From Candidatus Anderseniibacteriota bacterium (GTDB taxonomy: Bacteria; Patescibacteriota; Andersenbacteria; UBA10190): 64,000 bases of DNA. This document shows positions 3,004 through 35,768 of this stretch, piece by piece (the stretch's first letter is position 1; the number at the start of each line of letters is the position of its first letter). The position numbers and the translations under genes were made by a program. Below the pieces are notes generated by a model. It made no database searches and was not told where the DNA came from. It worked only from the letters and a program-made list of their open reading frames with translations. The stretch spans positions 210,178 through 274,177 of the forward strand of contig JACPWO010000002.1 in assembly GCA_016197005.1 (NCBI GenBank). Reading direction: 5' to 3'.

Positions 3004-4308
3004 ATGGTTACTTGGAATAACCGTTGGCATACTGCTATGAAAATCCAAGTTCTTGTTGCGGTTAGTGCGATATTTTTTCTTGGGTATCTGTGGGGAGTCA
3101 TTCACCAAGAATCGCTTACTACTTGTCGACTGGCAGATGAGTTTAGTGGCGTGATTACGCGTGTGTATTCGCTCGAGTCTGATCGTGCACAATATGTTGT
3201 CGCTGGTGATAGCGGGTGTTCTACTTTAGTGACCACCCTACGATTGCCAGAGTATGCGGCTGGTCAACGTATCTCTGTTGCTGGTGAAGTCCAGCCCATA
3301 TCCGATCTTCCTGAAGAATACGTAGGGTATCGTGACTACCTTGATCGACAAGCAATCGATGGGACGGTTCGTTTGGCTGATATAGAGGTAACGGGTGGCC
3401 AGCTATTTATAGGAGAGCGTATCCGCCAATCTTTTCGTAAACAAGTGGAAACTGTATTTGGACAGCCCGAAGCAGGAGTTATGAAGGCAATGCTTTTAGG
3501 GGATCGGGGAACGGTTAGCGAAGAGGCGCAGACAGCTTTTGAACGAACTGGAACAACGCATATTCTTTCAATCTCTGGCTTGCATGTTTCTATTCTTGTC
3601 ATTGTGCTCGCTTTTGTACTTGAATCTCTTCCACTTGGCCCGTGGGTACGGTCGAGCATAACGATTGCGCTTCTATGGATGTACATTCTTTTAATTGGTG
3701 CGCCGCCAGCCGCAGTACGAGCAGCGCTCTTTTGTACATGTATTCTATTAGCCCTTCGACTTCGAGTGTTGGTAAGCTTGTCTACCATATTTTTGCTGGC
3801 CGCTACTGCGATGATTTCGAGTAATCCCCATGTACTACAAGACATTGGCTTCCAATTGTCTTTCAGTGCGATTGCCGGCATGGGTCTAGTTCTGTTTTTA
3901 GTAGGACGTCCACAGTCACCACTTCTTAATGCATTTCTCATATCTCTGGGTGCGACCATTGGCACGTGGCCGATTGTGTCGTACCACTTTGGGCAAATCT
4001 CTCTCATTAGTCTGCCGGCAAATGTTTTAATAGTTCCCACGGTTGCACCACTTCTCATCCTGGCACTCTTATCTATTCTAATTAGTTTTGTGGTGCCAGC
4101 GCTCGGACTCGTCGGTGGTTTCTTTGTACACTTACTATGGAAATATATTTTTTCGGTGGCGTTGTTTATGAGCAACATACCTGGAGCAAGTTTTGCGTTT
4201 GCAACACCTTTCTGGCTAGCAGTGGGGTGGTATGGCGTTGTCGTACTAGGTGCAATATATACTTTGTCTCTTCAAAAACGTTCATGGCGCGAGATCTGGG
4301 TCAATTAA
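3004..4308 (+). CDS. comEC: ComEC/Rec2 N-terminal part (DUF4131 + competence domain); frame breaks at an A5 run
   Basis: MKAMLLGDRG...GTTHILSISGLHVSIL competence-domain motif; multiple TM helices; ends 4308 while the MBL domain continues in another frame. Confidence 0.8.
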   Translation: MVTWNNRWHTAMKIQVLVAVSAIFFLGYLWGVIHQESLTTCRLADEFSGVITRVYSLESDRAQYVVAGDSGCSTLVTTLRLPEYAAGQRISVAGEVQPISDLPEEYVGYRDYLDRQAIDGTVRLADIEVTGGQLFIGERIRQSFRKQVETVFGQPEAGVMKAMLLGDRGTVSEEAQTAFERTGTTHILSISGLHVSILVIVLAFVLESLPLGPWVRSSITIALLWMYILLIGAPPAAVRAALFCTCILLALRLRVLVSLSTIFLLAATAMISSNPHVLQDIGFQLSFSAIAGMGLVLFLVGRPQSPLLNAFLISLGATIGTWPIVSYHFGQISLISLPANVLIVPTVAPLLILALLSILISFVVPALGLVGGFFVHLLWKYIFSVALFMSNIPGASFAFATPFWLAVGWYGVVVLGAIYTLSLQKRSWREIWVN

Positions 4309-5132
4309 CAAGTACCGGCATTCTGGCGATTTCGTTCGCCGTGGCTGCTCTGGCCGGCGAGCCAACAAGCAAAGTTGTATTTCTTGATGTCGGCCAAGGC
4401 GATTCTATTTTATTACAAGATGGAATGCAGCAAATCCTTATCGATGGCGGCAAAGGAGACATTGTCCTTGAGCGTTTGGCTGAAGAAGTGCCTTACTTTG
4501 ATAGAAGTATCGAGGTGATTATCTCAACACACCCGGATCAAGATCATTTGGAAGGCTTGCTCCATATTTTACAACGATATGACGTGAAGTTAGTTCTTCT
4601 GCCACAAGCCGCTAAAGAAGATGCGTTGCAAGAAGCGTGGTTAAATCTTCTGCACGAAAAAAATATTCCGTATCGCTTTGCATGGTCAGGACAAACTCTT
4701 AGTGTAGGGAATATGAAGCTTAGTATCTTAGGACCCTTTGATACTGATGCCGCCCGCGCGGCTACTCGCGGTAACATTAATAACGCTTCGGTCTCAACTC
4801 GTCTAGATTACAACGGACTATCCTTTCTCTTAACTGGTGATGCAGAGCTTCAAGCAGAGCAACTTCTTGTGCACACTCTTCCACTTCAACTTAATGTAGA
4901 CATTTTAAAAGCCGGCCACCATGGTAGTAATTCTTCGACTCATACACCGCTTATCCGAGCTGCTTCGCCGGCAGCAGCAGTTATTTCGGTAGGGGCAGAT
5001 AATACGTATGGGCACCCGCATCCCGCCGTATTGCAACGACTTGAAGGGCTACGGCTATGGCGAACCGATGAAGATGGATCTGTACGTTTTCTGTTCAAGA
5101 ATGGACAATGGCTTTCAGCTGTTGCAAAATAA
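4284..5132 (+). CDS. comEC: ComEC C-terminal metallo-beta-lactamase domain (separate frame; probably the same gene as 3004..4308)
   Basis: ORF 4137..5132; VVFLDVGQGDS, HPDQDHLEGL, GHHGSNSS motifs of ComEC MBL domain. Confidence 0.8.
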   Translation: MARDLGQLTSTGILAISFAVAALAGEPTSKVVFLDVGQGDSILLQDGMQQILIDGGKGDIVLERLAEEVPYFDRSIEVIISTHPDQDHLEGLLHILQRYDVKLVLLPQAAKEDALQEAWLNLLHEKNIPYRFAWSGQTLSVGNMKLSILGPFDTDAARAATRGNINNASVSTRLDYNGLSFLLTGDAELQAEQLLVHTLPLQLNVDILKAGHHGSNSSTHTPLIRAASPAAAVISVGADNTYGHPHPAVLQRLEGLRLWRTDEDGSVRFLFKNGQWLSAVAK

Positions 5133-5161: not shown

Positions 5162-5746
5162 ATGGCAATCGAACGAACATTAGTCATTATAAAGCCAGAT
5201 GGGATCCAGCGTGGTCTTATTGGCGAGATTCTTGACCGCTTTGAACAAACGGGTCTTAAGTTCGTTGGAATGAAGATGGTGTGGCCAGACAAGAAACTGG
5301 TTGGCAACCACTATACCGGCGATGAGAAGTACAACACTGAAGTTGGAGAAAAGGCCCTGAAGAACGCCAAGGAACACGGAAAAGAAATGAATGAAAGTGC
5401 GTTAGACATTGGCCTTCGTATTCGAGAAACAAATATCCGCTATCTTTCAACGGGTCCAGTCCTAGCTTTTGTCCTAGAAGGAAATACTGCTATTAAGAGC
5501 GTTCGGAACATTATCGGTGGCACGAATCCTCTGACAGCTGATATTGGAACTATTCGTGGTGATTACACTATTGATGATTTTGCGCAGGCAGATATTGAGA
5601 GTCGTGCAGTGAGGAATTTGATGCATGCATCAAGTGAACCAGATGAAGCCAAACGAGAAATAGCGCTGTGGTTTTCTGACAAGGAACTCTACGATTACCA
5701 AACTGTAATGGATAAAGTTCTACACGATCCAAGTTGGGGAGCGTAA
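5162..5746 (+). CDS. ndk: nucleoside diphosphate kinase (with ~30 aa insertion and C-terminal extension)
   Basis: MAIERTLVIIKPDG...NIIGGTNP motifs. Confidence 0.9.
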   Translation: MAIERTLVIIKPDGIQRGLIGEILDRFEQTGLKFVGMKMVWPDKKLVGNHYTGDEKYNTEVGEKALKNAKEHGKEMNESALDIGLRIRETNIRYLSTGPVLAFVLEGNTAIKSVRNIIGGTNPLTADIGTIRGDYTIDDFAQADIESRAVRNLMHASSEPDEAKREIALWFSDKELYDYQTVMDKVLHDPSWGA

Positions 5747-5761
5747 AATATTTTCGATTTT

Positions 5762-5790
5762 AAAAACGGCGCCGAGAGGCGCTGTTTTTA
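5762..5790. terminator. bidirectional terminator between convergent ndk and NUDIX genes
   Basis: A-run, ACGGCGCC-GAGA-GGCGCTGT hairpin, T-run. Confidence 0.55.
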
Positions 5791-6249
5791 GTCACTAAGC
5801 TTCTGGAGTGCTTCTTTTGCATAGAAGCGAACGAGCCGAAGAATCTTATATTCACTGTTTTTAATGTCTTCACGTGTGAACCAGCGAAAATTGTGATGTT
5901 CTGCTGCGGCCAAAGAAACATTATTGGTAGCACTCTTCCCGAAATATATAAGGCCGATGTGTTGGTGGGGGGGATTAGCACTATGAATATCCATATAGAG
6001 GGGAGCAAGTAAGGGCGTTGCTTCATTATCTTGAATGTCCGGCTTATTTCCTCCTATCAATTCAACCTCAAGACCACACTCTTCTTTTATTTCTCGTATG
6101 AGAGCTTCTTCTGGGTTCTCATGTAGTTCAATGTGCCCGCCGATAGGCAACCAGCTTTTAAGCTTCTTGTGATCTACGAGAAGTACTTTATTTTTGTGAA
6201 CAATGAAGATGGCAACGGTGAAATCAATAAGATTATGTATATGTGCCAT
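5788..6249 (-). CDS. NUDIX hydrolase
   Basis: NUDIX box GGHIELHENPEEALIREIKEECGL. Confidence 0.8.
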   Translation of the reverse strand: MAHIHNLIDFTVAIFIVHKNKVLLVDHKKLKSWLPIGGHIELHENPEEALIREIKEECGLEVELIGGNKPDIQDNEATPLLAPLYMDIHSANPPHQHIGLIYFGKSATNNVSLAAAEHHNFRWFTREDIKNSEYKILRLVRFYAKEALQKLSD

Positions 6250-11361: not shown

Positions 11362-11462
11362 CAAAATTTTTAAAGAAAAATCCCCGTTGGTTTTGCGCCA
11401 AGGGGATGACTGTGCACTATATGCTGCGAGTCAGCGATGCATGCGGTAGTCCGCCTGCAATT

Positions 11463-12056
11463 TCAAAGCTCACAGCTGAACAAGAAAGCATCTCCATTTA
11501 CGGCGAGTGGGTGTTCTCGAGGCAATTTGCCTCTGAAACGGAAACCAGCAGAACGCAAAATAAACTGAAGGAAATTGCAATCTTGATGCAGATCCATTTG
11601 TATATCGAGACAGCCTCTCATCTTCAAATACGCTAAGGTCTCTTGAACAAGAAGTGGCGCAATCCTGGCGTATAGGGAGATGTTTTTAACGGCAATCTTT
11701 TGGATCTTTCCGATAGTTGGATCGTTAAGATTAATTGAGAATACGCAGCACCCAACAAATCGCCCATTAATGTACCCGAGCACCGCGTTCGTTTCACGGG
11801 TTAGTATGGCCTCGGTGTAATCATATTCTTGCCAGACATCGGAATCCTCTGGACTCATCATCTCTTCCATGGAAGGCGCGTAGGCAAGCGCTACCGCAGG
11901 ATTGACCCGCGCCACTTCAATGATGTCGGTTGCATGATCAATTAAGATGCTCATTAGCCGTCTCCATTGTGAGGGGATCAAGGGAACATTCCACGCGCAC
12001 TGACTGTAACCGTTACAGACTGTTATCTTTTTGCTCTGAAATTGTAACATTGTCAA
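11463..12056 (-). CDS. hypothetical protein with GNAT-like fold (acetyl-CoA motif not evident)
   Basis: 197-aa ORF antisense to operon direction; secondary-structure pattern resembles GNAT but Q/RxxGxG/A motif absent. Confidence 0.45.
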   Translation of the reverse strand: MTMLQFQSKKITVCNGYSQCAWNVPLIPSQWRRLMSILIDHATDIIEVARVNPAVALAYAPSMEEMMSPEDSDVWQEYDYTEAILTRETNAVLGYINGRFVGCCVFSINLNDPTIGKIQKIAVKNISLYARIAPLLVQETLAYLKMRGCLDIQMDLHQDCNFLQFILRSAGFRFRGKLPREHPLAVNGDAFLFSCEL

Positions 12057-12101
12057 CTTTATCCGCTTGAATTCTAGACATACTCACCGTACGTTTATCT
12101 G

Positions 12102-12479
12102 ATGTCCGAAGAATCTCTCAAGTCGGTTTTGGCACCTGTTCTCAAAGTCTTAAAAGATTTAGGCGGTAAGTTTGTGTTTTCAGATGATACCGGCGAGACG
12201 TTTGTTATTATGTCGAAGAAGGAGCTCGTGAAAAATCGCCGGCAGTCGGAAAAACAATTACCTTTGCTTTCGGCAGAAGCTACCGCTAAAGCAGTTCGAG
12301 AACATGTACCAATACAACTTGATGAAGAAATAATTGAAAACATTAACCGAGATATTGCGTTATCACTTACCTCCGAAGACTCGGATGAAAACTTGGCCTG
12401 GGAGGCGGAGCCAGTAAATATGAAGAAGGTAAGATTCGAATCGCTAAAAGGTGACATATCCCCAGATCTCCAAGATTAA
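12102..12479 (+). CDS. hypothetical acidic protein (125 aa)
   Basis: K/E-rich coding-like codon usage; divergent from 11463..12056. Confidence 0.45.
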   Translation: MSEESLKSVLAPVLKVLKDLGGKFVFSDDTGETFVIMSKKELVKNRRQSEKQLPLLSAEATAKAVREHVPIQLDEEIIENINRDIALSLTSEDSDENLAWEAEPVNMKKVRFESLKGDISPDLQD

Positions 12480-12625
12480 CCCCCTGTTATTGACGGGGGA
12501 AAGACGGTATAGTATACAGACAACAATCTCTTGAAGGCGCCTTGCACTTGCAAGGTGGACTACAAACGCTGAAGGAGGCTTTTGCCCGTTTGGGCATTTA
12601 ATTTGTAATTCATAACGTAAAACCT

Positions 12626-13819
12626 ATGGCTGAAAAATTCGAGCGCAATAAGCCTCACGTTAACGTCGGTACGATCGGCCACGTCGACCATGGCAAAACT
12701 ACCCTGACAGCAGCTCTTCTGCATGTTCAGAATATGCGCGGTGGTGTTAAGAAACTTTTGAGTGTTGATGAAATTGATGCTTCACCCGAAGAAAAAGAAC
12801 GTGGTATTACTATTTCAACTACTCACGTAGAGTTTGAATCTGAAAAACGTCACTACGCTCACGTTGATTGTCCTGGACACGCTGATTACATCAAAAACAT
12901 GATCACTGGCGCTGCCCAAATGGATGGAGCAATCCTAGTTGTATCTGCAACTGATGGACCAATGCCACAGACTCGCGAGCACGTTCTGCTTGCTCGTCAG
13001 GTAGGCGTTCCTCAGATCGTTGTCTTCTTGAATAAAGTGGATGCGGTTGATGATCCAGAATTGGTTGACCTCGTTGAAGAGGAAGTTCGCGATCTTTTGA
13101 GCAAATATGAGTTCGATGGCAAGAATGCCAAAATTATTCGTGGCTCAGCTCTAAAAGCACTTGATACCAAGAGCGTTGATGATGAAGCAGCTAAACCAAT
13201 CATTGATTTGGTTACTGCTCTCGACGAAACAATTCCAGATCCAGTTCGTGATACTGACAAGCCATACCTCATGCCAATTGAAGATGTCTTCTCTATTGAA
13301 GGTCGTGGCACGGTAGTAACTGGTCGTATCGAACGTGGTGTTGTAAAGGTTAACGATGAAGTTGAAATCGTTGGTCTCCGCGACACTCAGAAGACAGTTG
13401 TAACCGGAATTGAAATGTTCAACAAACAGCTCGACGAAGGACAAGCTGGTGATAACGCTGGCGTACTTCTCCGCGGTCTTAAGAAAGAAGATGTTGAGCG
13501 CGGACAGGTGGTCGCTGCTCCTAAATCCATTACTCCTCATACTGAATTTGACGCTGAAGTGTACGTTCTGACCAAAGATGAAGGTGGTCGTCACACTCCA
13601 TTCTTCAAAGGATACAAGCCTCAGTTCTACGTTCGTACAACTGACGTAACTGGTGAAGTTCAATTGCCAGAAGGAACTGAAATGGTTATGCCTGGCGATA
13701 CTATCAGCATCAAGGTAAAACTTGGATCTGCTGTCGCTATGGAAGACGGTATGCGCTTCGCTATCCGTGAAGGTGGACGCACTGTTGGTGCCGGAGTTGT
13801 AACGAAGGTTAACAAATAA
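12626..13819 (+). CDS. tuf: elongation factor Tu
   Basis: [22 protein letters not shown] motifs. Confidence 0.97.
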
Positions 13820-13850
13820 CCGAGTAATCTTTACCTCCTAGTACCTTTCA

Positions 13851-14216
13851 ATGGCCACCAAAGAAAAAGCTGAAGAAAAGAAAGAAGAAGCAGTAGCCGT
13901 ACCAGTTGCGGTGCCTCGCATTCGCATTAAGCTCAAAGCATATGATCATAAACTGATCGACCAGTCTGCGAAGCAGATTGTTGATGCAATTGAGCGCGAT
14001 GGCGGTAAAGTATCTGGCCCAGTGCCATTACCAACCGGTAAGAAGAAATACACCGTCAATCGCTCGACGTTCGTCCACAAAGACGCTCGCGATCAATATG
14101 AGATTCGGGTACACAAGCGCCTCATTGATATCACTGAGTCCACCTCACGCACCGTTGACACTCTGATGAGTCTCAACCTGCCAGCTGGAGTCGATGTATC
14201 GATGAAAACAGGCTAG
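13851..14216 (+). CDS. rpsJ: 30S ribosomal protein S10 (N-terminal ~20 aa extension)
   Basis: [17 protein letters not shown]...[20 protein letters not shown]. Confidence 0.93.
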
Positions 14217-14724
14217 GCCTTAGTAAATAGAAACATGACACCACCCCGCATACGCGGGGTGGTTGCGTTATTTTGTACTCAGGATGAGAGCCGACAGCCA
14301 AGAGATCGTCAATGAGGGCGATCTCGTAGCCGTTTTCGGCTGCCCATTGTTCCACGTCCCTGGTGAGGACAACGCGTCCGAAATGGACAAGGACGAGGTT
14401 TCGCGGACCTGGGGGCAGCGACAGCGGACAGCGTTTTTCCGTGATGTCGCCGTTCTTCCCGTCGTAGGCCCCGTCGGCGATGCGGTCACCCAGTGTCTTC
14501 TCCTTTTCAGGGATGACGACACCGGTGAGTTCCATGACGGTCGGGTACAGTTGACCCGAACTGAGGAACTTACGGAACGCTTCGCGGTCCAGATTGCGGT
14601 TGGCCTTGAGAAGGTCGGTAATGAAGCCGCCTTCAATGAGCCATTGCAGTTGCCCGCAGGAGACCTTCTCCTGGGTGAGGATGTTGAGAACTTGCTGGGC
14701 TTGTCGCAGGGTTGCGATGCTCAT
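14173..14724 (-). CDS. high-GC foreign gene fragment, unknown function (start 14724; 3' end runs into host terminator hairpin, probably truncated near 14275)
   Basis: GC3-rich codon usage (CTG, GCC, GAC, ATC) in an about 60% GC block inside a 45% GC operon; Met start inside an 18-nt palindrome. Confidence 0.5.
14240..14276 (+). terminator. strong hairpin/terminator immediately after rpsJ
   Basis: Perfect 10-bp stem ACCACCCCGC-AUAC-GCGGGGUGGU then UGCGUUAUUUUGU. Confidence 0.55.
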
Positions 14725-14889
14725 CGCAATTCCTTTCTACAATAGTGGGATATACAAGAAGTGCCGACACGGCTATTCATGTATATTCCCGGGTGAAATG
14801 AACTAATGAAGGAATAGCAACTTTACGTATAATTGTCAACTATACATAATGATTCAATGCCTACACACCAACCTGTGTTATGGGGAGAC

Positions 14890-14918
14890 TTTACATTTTC
14901 TAGGGGGTCTTCTATAGT
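14890..14918 (+). promoter_or_regulatory. putative promoter for rplC operon (TTTACA-17-TATAGT)
   Basis: Sequence match about 95 nt upstream of rplC ATG. Confidence 0.5.
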
Positions 14919-15013
14919 GTCACACAAGCGCGTATGCGTGGATTTTCTTATTCGCTAAGTAGTCACATATTTCCGGACCATTCTATGGCCCGTAAATCTC
15001 TGGACTCAATGTC

Positions 15014-15622
15014 ATGTCTAAAGCACTCCTTGGTCGAAAACTCGGAATGTCTCAAGTCTTCTCAGAAACCGGAGAAGTTGTTCCAGTTACGCTCGTTGTA
15101 GCCGAACCTAACGTTATTACCATTCGACGCACCAGCGATAAGGACGGTCACAATACGCTCCAACTCGGTCTGCCAGGTAAACGCAAGAACCAAAAGGAAA
15201 ACCAAAAGCTCACGCCTAATACCCTGAAACGTATGTACTCAGCTCGGCGTGAGTTTTCTATTGAAGCTGCCGAAGACGTGAAAGAACTAAGCGTTGAACA
15301 ATTCACTGTTGGGGAAGTAGTCGAGGTATCCGGCATCTCTAAAGGTAAGGGATTCCAAGGTGTCGTGAAGCGTCATGGATTTAAAGGAGGCCCAGCTAGT
15401 CATGGCCATTCAGATTGGGAACGCAAAGCTGGTTCTATTGGTAGCCGTTTTCCTCAGCACGTTCGTAAAGGTAAGCGCATGGCTGGTCGCATGGGAAGTG
15501 ATCGCGTCACTGTAAAAAATCTCGTGGTCGTTTCTATTGATGCTAAGAAAAACTTACTCGCAATTAAAGGTGCCTTGCCCGGAAAGCGTGGCACTGTTTT
15601 AGAAATTAGAAGCAAAGACTAA
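15014..15622 (+). CDS. rplC: 50S ribosomal protein L3
   Basis: Family match; S10 operon order. Confidence 0.93.
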
Positions 15623-33981: not shown

Positions 33982-35317
33982 GATTGAACAAATCACGGCG
34001 CAAGAAGTGCTCGATTCTCGGGGAATTCCTACTGTCCGAGCCACTGTTGTCGTGACAGGTGGATATTTAGGAACAGCAACTGTGCCATCAGGAGCCTCGA
34101 CTGGCTCGCACGAGGCTCATGAATTACGTGATGGAGATGAAAAACGGTATGGCGGAAAAGGGGTGCAGCAAGCTGTAAAAAACGTAACGACAAGTATTCA
34201 CGCTGCTCTTATTGGAAAAGATACCGGTAATCAAGCCAAGATTGATCGCACCATGATTGAACTTGACGGCACTCCTCAAAAAACAAAACTCGGAGCCAAC
34301 GCCATTCTCGCTGTTTCGCTGGCATGTGCTCGAGCGGAAGCGGCTGCTCAGAACTTGCCTTTGTACTTGTACCTTCAAGAATTACTTCCCAACCAAAAAG
34401 CAGTGCTGCCGGTACCACAGATGAACCTCATAAACGGTGGTACTCATGCCAGTAATGGTATTTCCATTCAGGAATACCACGTCGTACCGGCGGGTGCTTC
34501 CAGTTTTGCCGAAGCGCTGCGAATGGGAACAGAAGTAAGCTATGCTCTAAAAACTCTTTTACTAAAGGATGGTTTTCGAGTTGAGGTTGGAGACGAAGGT
34601 GGTTTTGCACCAGCAATTAGCAAAAGTGATGACGCCTTTAATTACTTAGTACGAGCAATTGAAGAGGCCGGATACATTCCCGGGTCTGACATCTGGCTTG
34701 GAATAGATGCGGCGGCATCAGAATTTTATGACAGTGAACAACATATCTATACCCTTGATGGTGGTCCGCTTGCTCCTGCTGATTTAGCGGCGCGCTACCG
34801 AGATTGGCGAGAACGATATCCCCTTATTTCTGTAGAAGATCCGTTTGCCGAGGATCGCTGGGATGAGTGGCAAGTGTTTACGGAGAAACATAAAGAAGTA
34901 ATGCAGATTGTTGGGGATGATTTGTTTGTCACAAATACCCAGCGCATTCAAGAAGGAATTGTGCGGGGGGTTGCTAATGCTGTTCTTATTAAGCCAAATC
35001 AGATTGGTACGTTATCGGAAACATTGCAGGCAGTGGCATTAACACAACGGGCTGAATATAACGTCATTATTTCGCATCGCTCCGGTGAAACCGAAGATAC
35101 CTTTATTGCTGACTTGTCGGTAGCTGTCGGAGCCGGTCAAATTAAAACTGGCGCCCCCGTGCGTTCAGAGCGAACAGGCAAATACAATCGGTTACTAGAG
35201 ATAGAAGCTCAGATGCAAGGCATAAAGCTCGGACATAGCCTGCAACGCTTCCTCGAGCGGCAAACGTCACATTTTGCGGCTGCTGGAATTGAAATTGAGC
35301 GTCGTCCCGCTCGATGA
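33974..35317 (+). CDS. eno: enolase
   Basis: SHRSGETED, LLIKPNQIGT motifs. Confidence 0.95.
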   Translation: MAKIEQITAQEVLDSRGIPTVRATVVVTGGYLGTATVPSGASTGSHEAHELRDGDEKRYGGKGVQQAVKNVTTSIHAALIGKDTGNQAKIDRTMIELDGTPQKTKLGANAILAVSLACARAEAAAQNLPLYLYLQELLPNQKAVLPVPQMNLINGGTHASNGISIQEYHVVPAGASSFAEALRMGTEVSYALKTLLLKDGFRVEVGDEGGFAPAISKSDDAFNYLVRAIEEAGYIPGSDIWLGIDAAASEFYDSEQHIYTLDGGPLAPADLAARYRDWRERYPLISVEDPFAEDRWDEWQVFTEKHKEVMQIVGDDLFVTNTQRIQEGIVRGVANAVLIKPNQIGTLSETLQAVALTQRAEYNVIISHRSGETEDTFIADLSVAVGAGQIKTGAPVRSERTGKYNRLLEIEAQMQGIKLGHSLQRFLERQTSHFAAAGIEIERRPAR

Positions 35318-35342
35318 TAGAATACTAAGCACACATCCTTCT

Positions 35343-35768
35343 ATGACTGATCACGGATCTACTTGGGAGCATCGTCGTACGGAACTTTGGGACCGTATTT
35401 TTCAAGTTACCCAGGACGTCGTAACACTTGCTGAACAAATGACTGAAACGCCTGGGACAAATGTCCTGCGGGGACAACTTGTCCAAGCTGCCATGGATGT
35501 TGGTAAGTTCTTAGCGCGTGCCACGGCCGCTCATGGTGAGGGAGATTTCCAGAGGAATATTGAAGAATCTCGTCTGAAAGCAATTGAATCGGATTACTGG
35601 CTGCGACTGGCATATATTGTGCAGCAACGTGAGGAAGTACAGCGTGATCTCTCAAGTGTAATCTCTCAGTACGGTAGTATTGTTGATTTACTTAATAAAC
35701 TGGGCCGTCACGTCCAAGACACTCATGACGTCGGCCTGCACACTCGCGGCCCGAAAGTGAATTTGTAA
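35343..35768 (+). CDS. four-helix-bundle protein (23S rRNA IVS-type family)
   Basis: ORF 35274..35768 trimmed to MTDHGS; helical, family-like pattern. Confidence 0.6.
   Translation: MTDHGSTWEHRRTELWDRIFQVTQDVVTLAEQMTETPGTNVLRGQLVQAAMDVGKFLARATAAHGEGDFQRNIEESRLKAIESDYWLRLAYIVQQREEVQRDLSSVISQYGSIVDLLNKLGRHVQDTHDVGLHTRGPKVNL

Follow-up and report, generated by a model that had tools for sequence, protein, structure and literature searches.

Genomic Context of the rpsJ-rplC Gap

The stretch of DNA considered here, below called the window, comprises 64 kb of a metagenome-assembled genome (MAG) of Candidatus Andersenbacteria, a lineage of the Candidate Phyla Radiation (CPR, Patescibacteria). The gene order tuf-rpsJ-rplC-rplD-rplW-rplB... 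is kept in the window, and the genes rpsJ and rplC, encoding ribosomal proteins S10 and L3, are separated by a gap of 797 bp (measured between positions 14216 and 15014), close to the 800 bp given in an initial annotation of the locus. The gap harbors a GC-rich block with an open reading frame (ORF) of 183 amino acids (aa) on the opposite strand, at 14173-14724 (-). This ORF and the block around it, which proves to be related to target genes of diversity-generating retroelements (DGRs), are the subject of the present analysis.

In the initial annotation, the block was described as a fragment of a gene from a high-GC donor whose insertion had split the S10 operon, and all the features on which this description relied are indeed present, at the given positions or a few bases away (Table 1). 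Directly downstream of rpsJ there is a perfect 10-bp-stem terminator, with the hairpin ACCACCCCGC-ATAC-GCGGGGTGGT at 14240-14263 and a T-rich tail that reaches about 14276. The antisense reading frame reads through this hairpin and then 44 nt into the antisense strand of rpsJ. Upstream of rplC, the annotated promoter TTTACA-17-TATAGT was found at 14890-14918, where it fits 10 of the 12 consensus positions in a consensus scan; the surrounding region 13700-15200 contains five promoter-like sites, compared to 1.5 expected from shuffled sequences. Thus, rpsJ and rplC of the window, with a terminator and a promoter between them, do not form a contiguous operon. The AT-rich stretch that had been assigned to the rplC promoter does carry this promoter; however, its part at 14730-14839 is not spacer, as it consists of the minus-strand leader and promoter of the fragment itself.

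Table 1. Features of the rpsJ-rplC gap in the window and coordinates of the corresponding features in related loci
Feature	Position	Strand	Evidence or remark
rpsJ (ribosomal protein S10, 121 aa)	13851..14216	+	PF00338 match, E = 2.4e-35
Chance read-through tail of the ORF, ~31 codons and stop	14173..14272	-	no family homology
Native intrinsic rpsJ terminator, 10-bp stem and 4-nt loop (14240-14263) with T-rich tail	14240..14276	+	consensus scan, both strands
Junction between terminator tail and cut gene; breakpoint within 9 nt	14264..14272		blastn homology to L001 stops at 14273
Truncated DGR variable-protein coding region, about codons 1-151	14273..14724	-	N-terminal helical region and about the first half of the predicted C-type-lectin fold
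Conserved structured 5' leader of the target mRNA	14704..14804	-	RNAalifold consensus, covariation, covariance model
Target-gene promoter: -35 TTGACA (14839-14834), 17-nt spacer, -10 TATTCC (14816-14811)	14811..14839	-	alignment with family upstream sequences
50 nt without assigned origin; right edge of the inserted DNA somewhere inside	14840..14889		homology comparison
Ancestral rplC promoter TTTACA-17-TATAGT (14890-14918) and rplC 5' untranslated region	14890..15013	+	consensus scan, promoters of relatives
rplC (ribosomal protein L3, 202 aa)	15014..15622	+	PF00297 match, E = 1.5e-16
Leaders in other target loci	L001 7920-8021; L003 7922-8021; L086 7918-8021; L087 221-323; L090 337-435; L092 104-204; L093 622-725; L100 211-313; L102 1246-1342		aligned with the window leader
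rplC promoter regions in relatives	L007 ~5640-5730; L008 ~1720-1809; L013 ~2500-2588; L014 ~4800-4888		corresponding to window 14890-15013 (+)
Accessory rpsJ-rplC gaps in relatives	L007 4331-5730; L008 917-1809; L010 4382-6630; L013 1036-2588; L015 3510-4660; L085 4298-6433		

The Antisense ORF Belongs to a Family of DGR Variable Proteins

The ORF was initially reported to match nothing; in fact, it belongs to a large protein family. A protein search yielded 22 homologs besides the window ORF, mostly 207-215 aa long, and those with 83-87% query coverage match ORF residues 1 to ~154. All homologs with a named source come from Andersenbacteria. A profile search against 1.84 billion cluster representatives detected 3640 relatives under a cutoff of E <= 1e-3, a number that falls to 1599 under E <= 1e-10; the majority are about 200 aa long and match through to the C-terminal end, which bears the variable repeat described below. 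No significant match was obtained with Pfam or PHROGs for the ORF, with Pfam for the full-length homologs and multi-domain relatives, or in a PDB sequence search with the family profile. A scan of viral contigs revealed no relatives of the family, and thus no evidence of a phage origin.

DGRs act through a reverse transcriptase (RT), which copies a template repeat (TR) with errors at adenines, and the resulting cDNA overwrites the variable repeat (VR) of a target gene; the outcome is diversification of the ligand-binding face of a small protein that folds as a C-type lectin (CLec). Mismatches that fall almost exclusively at adenines of the downstream copy are the defining signature of a TR/VR pair. 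Exactly such repeats are found in the loci encoding full-length homologs of the window ORF. The last 134 nt of the gene recur about 500 bp downstream, and the mismatches between the two copies coincide with TR adenines at 17 of 18 positions in L001 and 20 of 21 in L003. Genes for the accessory protein Avd and an RVT_1 reverse transcriptase are located 0.5-1 kb downstream of the target gene (L001/L002, L003/L089, L086, L087, L090, L100, and L101; the L094 locus extends only as far as Avd), and this neighborhood was seen on every sufficiently long contig. The Avd and RT context, together with the adenine-located VR/TR differences, identifies the family as DGR variable proteins, for which a CLec fold is predicted; in the model of the ~208-aa protein, the C-terminal β-strands of the CLec domain correspond to E167-206. 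At the level of these repeat comparisons, diversification of the family by DGR adenine mutagenesis is shown.

The intact Andersenbacteria loci have a common order: a promoter, a structured leader, the ~208-aa gene ending in the 134-nt VR, the TR, avd, and the RT gene, with avd on the opposite strand in each locus for which the strand was recorded. The target-TR-Avd-RT layout is typical of CPR DGRs, and both this layout and the CPR-restricted RT clade conform to earlier surveys (Wu et al., 2018, PMC5758913; Roux et al., 2021, PMC8144416). The RTs of the homolog loci are 62-73% identical across CPR phyla. A conserved element CCCTTGG(N)CACTTGAACCCTTGGC occurs immediately 3' of the VR (L001 8628-8690, L003 8643-8700, L095 1690-1740) and is followed by a terminator hairpin about 40 nt further; it may be a DGR target-recognition region. 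The region of this element and the following terminator is absent from the window.

The Window Copy Is Truncated Upstream of the Variable Repeat

The window ORF shows 71% amino-acid identity (E = 2e-61) to P0002, a protein encoded in a locus that has VR, TR, Avd, and RT. At the DNA level, L001 matches window positions 14738-14273 with 74.6% identity (blastn, E = 7e-86), and the match ends at 14273. The window copy retains homology to DGR targets over the non-variable part of the gene, together with their promoter, the ~100-nt leader, the Shine-Dalgarno (SD) sequence, the start codon, and about codons 1-151 (14724-14273).

Several comparisons locate the end of homology. All 16 aligned homologs part from the window sequence after ...SHPEYK, with P0018 ending there; in the MAFFT alignment, identity is lost past GAGTACAA, at the junction 14264..14272; and tblastn coverage of homology is restricted to window 14724-14263. 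Among the 150 best family representatives, only the window copy and a nonsense-mutated one stop at profile position ~154-155. The initial suggestion that the 3' end of an acquired gene had been truncated and ran into the host terminator hairpin is therefore borne out by the read-through, by the loss of homology at 14273, and by the absence of the block from 80 related loci (see below).

With L001 as the reference, the cut precedes the onset of VR/TR identity by about 17 nt, or by 25-35 nt if the ambiguous similarity at 14264-14272 is counted. It interrupts the predicted lectin fold midway and takes away all C-terminal strands of the modelled CLec domain together with the VR. In the 64-kb window, only chance-level matches were found to VR or TR (blastn and tblastn) and to RT or Avd (tblastn, E <= 10), and the target's own stop codon and terminator were not found with the window copy. 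Both the VR/TR pair and the RT and Avd genes are present in the homolog loci. Thus, the window copy is a remnant of the DGR variable-protein kind and not a working member, and the whole block 14273-14839 (-) is likely the remnant of a DGR target gene with its upstream region. An ORF at 35274-35768 (+), which immediately precedes recJ, scores 29.2 bits against 23S_rRNA_IVP, below the cutoff of 33.8. The proteins of this family are four-helix bundles related to Avd; the ORF showed no tblastn similarity to the DGR Avd of the homolog loci.

The remnant itself is well preserved. Its 152 homologous codons contain no stop and no frameshift. Of 41 positions with conservation of at least 93% in the other sequences, three are changed in the window copy and 0-6 in the 14 close homologs. 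The ratio of nonsynonymous to synonymous substitution rates (dN/dS) is 0.12-0.26 between the window and four other copies and 0.12-0.24 among intact copies. The loss of the 3' part looks recent from these sequence comparisons, because the ORF is intact and both the conserved residues and the atypical GC content at third codon positions (GC3) have been kept.

A second orphan target copy provides a precedent for the decay of target genes. It is located in L095 at 975-1700, is identical in L096-L099, which represent five sequencing runs or samples together with L095, and adjoins dprA on one side and an mfd-like helicase gene on the other. This copy has an in-frame TAA just ahead of an otherwise readable VR, and no RT was found within 3 kb.

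Promoter and Leader RNA of the Target Genes

The -35 hexamer of the window copy, TTGACA, is invariant in 5/5 aligned upstream sequences and occurs at 16-18-nt spacing upstream of each full-length copy compared. The -10 hexamer TATTCC was considered as a sign of promoter decay; this was rejected, since the intact L092 carries the identical hexamer.

The promoter is followed by a conserved leader, for which ten distinct sequences, all from the close Andersenbacteria-type target subfamily, were aligned. Besides a conserved 5' element GUUCAUUUCAC, the leader contains two hairpins, of which the first is a long stem-loop with covariation and the second covers the SD and AUG. In the second helix, RNAalifold pairs the SD AGG with CCU/CCC, and UUGCAAU with AUUGCAA around the AUG. 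This hairpin takes in the 18-nt palindrome TTGCGATG-CT-CATCGCAA (14712-14729) that, as had been noted initially, contains the start codon. In the consensus structure, 90.9% of cells are paired, and two-sided changes are observed in 13 of 22 pairs; none of 500 shuffles reached this level, and slid controls gave 33-48%. The start-codon helix occurs in several forms, TTGCGATG/CATCGCAA, TTGCAATG/CATTGCAA, TTGTGA/TCACAA, and TTGCC/GGCAA, in which changes at a base of the untranslated region (UTR) are matched by changes at a position within a codon; in most copies the latter are synonymous (Ile ATC/ATT). The minimum free energy fold of the window leader coincides with the consensus (z = -2.8).

A covariance model built on the leaders scores the window leader at 97.9 bits and finds matches only upstream of target genes, from 27 sources, with the exception of two ~11-bit matches (E 0.85-0.92) on the opposite strand of the start-codon palindrome. 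No Rfam 15 match was found in 14150-15100 on either strand at E <= 1, and the only curated RNA families detected at gathering threshold in the window were RNase P RNA and two tRNAs. The leader may have a translational-control function; alternatively, the palindrome, which is perfect at the DNA level, might serve as an operator for a protein. A bolder interpretation, that the leader is an undescribed cis-regulatory RNA gating translation of CPR DGR targets and that the remnant is still expressed and regulated, perhaps antisense towards the rpsJ terminator, is possible, although we consider it rather doubtful.

The rpsJ-rplC Gap in Related Genomes

The organization of the gap in other genomes was analyzed using 80 rpsJ loci fetched from related genomes. 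The GC-rich block was found at this site in none of them (0/80). At the same time, the gap itself is common. In the nine closest relatives in which both genes were found (83-89% S10 identity), its length ranges from 220 to 2249 bp (median 893 bp); the 67 other Patescibacteria have a median gap of 206 bp, and a gap of <=20 nt occurs in just one of these 67. Overall, the gap spans 67-2249 bp in all related loci except one, which is a tblastn overlap artefact.

The transcription signals flanking the gap are also shared. Ten of the 12 nearest relatives carry a hairpin resembling a terminator behind rpsJ, and the hairpin core CCCCGCAT..GCGGGG is common to the window (CCCCGCATACGCGGGG), L006 (CCCCGCATATCGCGGGG), and L008 (CCCCGCATTAGCGGGG). 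The possibility that the hairpin was brought by the insert, as a DGR-type cruciform or as the terminator of the target gene, was rejected, given that L006 and L008 have the same core and that the family terminator differs in sequence. The rplC promoter of the window corresponds position by position to its counterparts in L007, L008, L013, and L014; the 17-nt spacer is identical in length, and all five have an invariant T-run and TTCTAT. The conserved promoter TTnnCn-17-TATnnT is followed by a putative small 5' UTR hairpin (ACCCGTGC...GGGT-like); this may be a ribosomal-protein regulatory leader of an operon starting at rplC.

Relatives without the insert have orthologous terminators and promoters, from which it follows that both the stop behind rpsJ and the new start of transcription ahead of rplC are ancestral in this lineage. 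Hence, two statements of the initial annotation have to be abandoned: the operon was not split by the insert, since 10 of 12 relatives have a terminator-like hairpin after rpsJ without it and the gaps of Andersenbacteria span 220-2249 bp, and the rplC promoter is not new, having orthologs in four relatives.

Accessory genes occupy the gap in several relatives, including an XRE-type helix-turn-helix gene (HTH_XRE) in L008, an AbiEii toxin gene in L013, a DUF3152 gene in L085, and several ORFs without a family match. Thus, the Andersenbacteria rpsJ-rplC gap is a hotspot of accessory DNA, and the fragment is its current cargo in the window. One cargo ORF, at 5575-6165 (+) in L010 (196 aa), was weighed as a possible DGR target on account of a C-terminus (…VVWLDRDWYHFRPAAVRAS) similar to the family's VR region, but was rejected (hhalign probability 1.8%, no TR-like repeat at the locus). 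In L015, 7-nt tandem repeats of the TAGTAAC/CAGTAAT type are located directly after the rpsJ stop codon, at 3510-3640. In the window, no detectable homology to target loci or to the upstream regions of rplC in relatives was found for the segment 14840..14889.

In the window, the fusA-tuf gap (11362-12625) also has extra ORFs: one at 11463-12056 (-) with a weak, sub-threshold match to GNAT acetyltransferases, and another at 12102-12479 (+) or 12095-12457 (-) with no match. It follows that other junctions of the str/S10 cluster are also interrupted in this genome.

Base Composition of the Target Genes

The compositional anomaly that drew attention to the block is real. The GC content of 14280-14730 is 0.583, slightly below the approximately 60% initially stated, with z = 4.6 compared to all 451-nt windows; the computed profile is not uniform, and its maximum (0.585) falls on the 451-nt stretch starting at 14277. 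A second GC peak, at ~36.2 kb, corresponds to recJ. The GC3 bias of the antisense frame is likewise confirmed, being 0.70 over the 152 homologous codons and 0.39 +/- 0.04 in 19 host genes.

The attribution of this bias to a high-GC donor, however, does not survive the comparison with intact loci. The loci behind this comparison include L001 8001-8627, L003 8001-8642, L086 8001-8624, L087 303-926, L090, L093, L094, L100, and L102. In the nine intact DGR loci whose available flanks amount to 500 nt or more, the target genes have GC of 0.52-0.59 and GC3 of 0.59-0.77 and exceed the rest of the locus by 7-15 GC points. They also exceed their own RT (0.40-0.47) by 9-19 points in the four loci with a measured RT; the GC of avd is 0.42 in the single locus measured. 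The host GC of Andersenbacteria with homologs is 0.40-0.51, and their RT and avd genes are host-like. Therefore, the Andersenbacteria homologs are as GC-rich as the window copy, and elevated GC is a family trait rather than the mark of a compositionally distinct donor. A counterpart of the block with host-like composition was not found as such; what the relatives hold is the same gene, with the same atypical GC, in other loci.

Synonymous sites are saturated between target copies, the synonymous divergence (dS) being 0.9-2.5, which implies active maintenance of the GC bias as opposed to the gradual loss of a donor's imprint. Thus, the anomaly is a trait of the gene family within Andersenbacteria. 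In the L095 orphan, GC3 has drifted to 0.54, and the GC content has shifted towards that of the host.

Origin of the Fragment

The following scenario would account for the observed structure. A DGR cassette, or the target gene alone, would have entered the rpsJ-rplC gap, with the gene pointing towards rpsJ, the entry site being the ancestral inter-operon spacer between the terminator and the promoter. A deletion would then have taken the 3' end of the gene, plus the rest of the cassette if it was present, and fused the gene, cut ~17 nt short of the VR, to the T-rich tail behind the rpsJ hairpin, with the breakpoint in 14264-14272. The remnant so formed could neither be diversified nor fold as a lectin. 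The rpsJ hairpin is symmetric and could stop antisense transcripts as well; the mRNA of the remnant, if made, would most likely end there, ~65 nt before the first stop codon. Because such a transcript would end ahead of any stop codon, its translation would presumably yield a product handled as a non-stop product. We infer that the remnant has no role in the transcription of ribosomal genes, because termination after rpsJ and re-initiation at rplC predate it. Retro-insertion of a copy of the target mRNA was also considered and seems unlikely, given that the fragment includes the untranscribed -35/-10 promoter.

Some observations weigh against this scenario: the fragment has no decay, a plausible promoter, and a perfectly folded leader, all of which would equally be expected of a gene still in use; the junction is carried by one assembly only; and the absence of any DGR or target homolog from the gap in all 80 related loci leaves no direct sign of a whole cassette at the site.

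That the truncated gene still functions, as a short protein made up of the N-terminal helical region and half a domain or as a regulated antisense unit converging on the rpsJ/tuf transcript, would indeed agree with the intact 152-codon frame and its family-conserved residues, with dN/dS as low as between intact copies, with the maintained GC3, with the invariant -35 box and a -10 box shared with an intact copy, and with the fully kept leader fold (97.9 bits). A recent deletion, however, explains all these signs of conservation equally well, and the structural consequences of the cut argue in its favor: the C-terminal β-strands of the modelled CLec domain and the VR are gone, the last ~31 residues of the ORF come from the terminator hairpin and rpsJ antisense, and a product ending at this point is shared, among the 150 best representatives, only with the nonsense-mutated copy. 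In terms of the predicted fold, continued use of the short product would be implausible, and we regard a functional truncated gene as unlikely. The two remaining explanations are less probable still. The initially proposed entry of a fragment from a distant high-GC donor, which would have split a co-transcribed rpsJ-rplC pair and brought or created the terminator and promoter, is in line with the position of the block at the GC maximum of the window (z = 4.6) and with the absence of the gene from this site in 80 related loci. Yet both signals have orthologs in relatives without the insert, a spacer is the rule in the 67 other Patescibacteria (median 206 nt, 1/67 <=20 nt), the source-named close homologs belong to the same lineage, the gene is GC-richer than its own RT and Avd in each locus measured, and at dS of 0.9-2.5 the bias is maintained and carries no donor signature, all of which makes such an event highly improbable. 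Similarly, part of the DGR locus of another Andersenbacteria population in the sample might have been mis-joined into the contig, as could be suspected for a compositionally discordant block held by one assembly only in a MAG. Such an artefact would require two chimeric joins within 600 bp of non-repeated sequence inside a 492-kb contig. The flanks line up with the terminator and promoter orthologs found in relatives, and the same GC discordance is normal for the gene in each intact locus measured; we consider a mis-join very improbable. A remnant of a DGR target gene, cut by deletion, thus remains the preferred explanation.

Comparison with Known Systems and Implications

Known DGR variable proteins with the CLec fold include Mtd of a Bordetella phage, TvpA of Treponema, TaqVP of Thermus, and the nanoarchaeal AvpA. 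The window family has no Pfam or PDB sequence match and differs from these proteins in its very small size (~208 aa) and in an N-terminal helical region; the window copy, in addition, lacks the VR and half of the predicted fold. In the DGRs of CPR bacteria (architecture B3, Wu et al., 2018, PMC5758913; clade 2, Roux et al., 2021, PMC8144416), the order target-TR-Avd-RT is the same as in the homolog loci, whereas RT, Avd, and TR were not found in the 64 kb of the window. The presence of DGR parts beside ribosomal-protein genes has precedents, since five CPR DGRs have such genes interposed among their components (Wu et al., 2018, PMC5758913). We know of no description of orphaned 5' remnants of target genes in the two DGR surveys searched (PMC5758913, PMC8144416).

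The SD/AUG-sequestering leaders, such as RNA thermometers and protein-titrated operators, are comparable to the window leader, which likewise pairs the SD AGG and the AUG in a 10-bp helix. Unlike them, the window leader matches no Rfam family, and its role in control is putative.

In the canonical S10 operon of Escherichia coli, rpsJ and rplC are contiguous, and an L4-regulated leader lies upstream of rpsJ. The window shares the gene order tuf-rpsJ-rplC-rplD-rplW-rplB... with this operon. By contrast, rpsJ of Andersenbacteria is terminated on its own; variable cargo follows, and rplC is provided with a separate, conserved promoter and a 5' UTR. The apparent anomaly of the locus is thereby removed: no ribosomal operon was broken by foreign DNA.

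The existence of CPR DGRs, their architecture, and their occasional neighborhood with ribosomal-protein genes have already been documented (PMC5758913). The data presented here provide evidence on the nature of a large family without Pfam matches, which counts 1599 or more clusters (50% identity) at E <= 1e-10: its members would be small DGR variable proteins of the CLec type. Among the by-products, a covariation-supported leader RNA ahead of DGR target genes is the most novel; another is the maintenance of the target gene at a GC content far above that of its own retroelement and host. The leader motif, the GC puzzle, and the rpsJ-rplC accessory hotspot are the parts that deserve a further look.

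In summary, the fragment between rpsJ and rplC would testify that a streamlined CPR genome gained and then lost a hypermutation system, and it illustrates that remnants of DGR target genes may be recognized without VR, TR, or RT.

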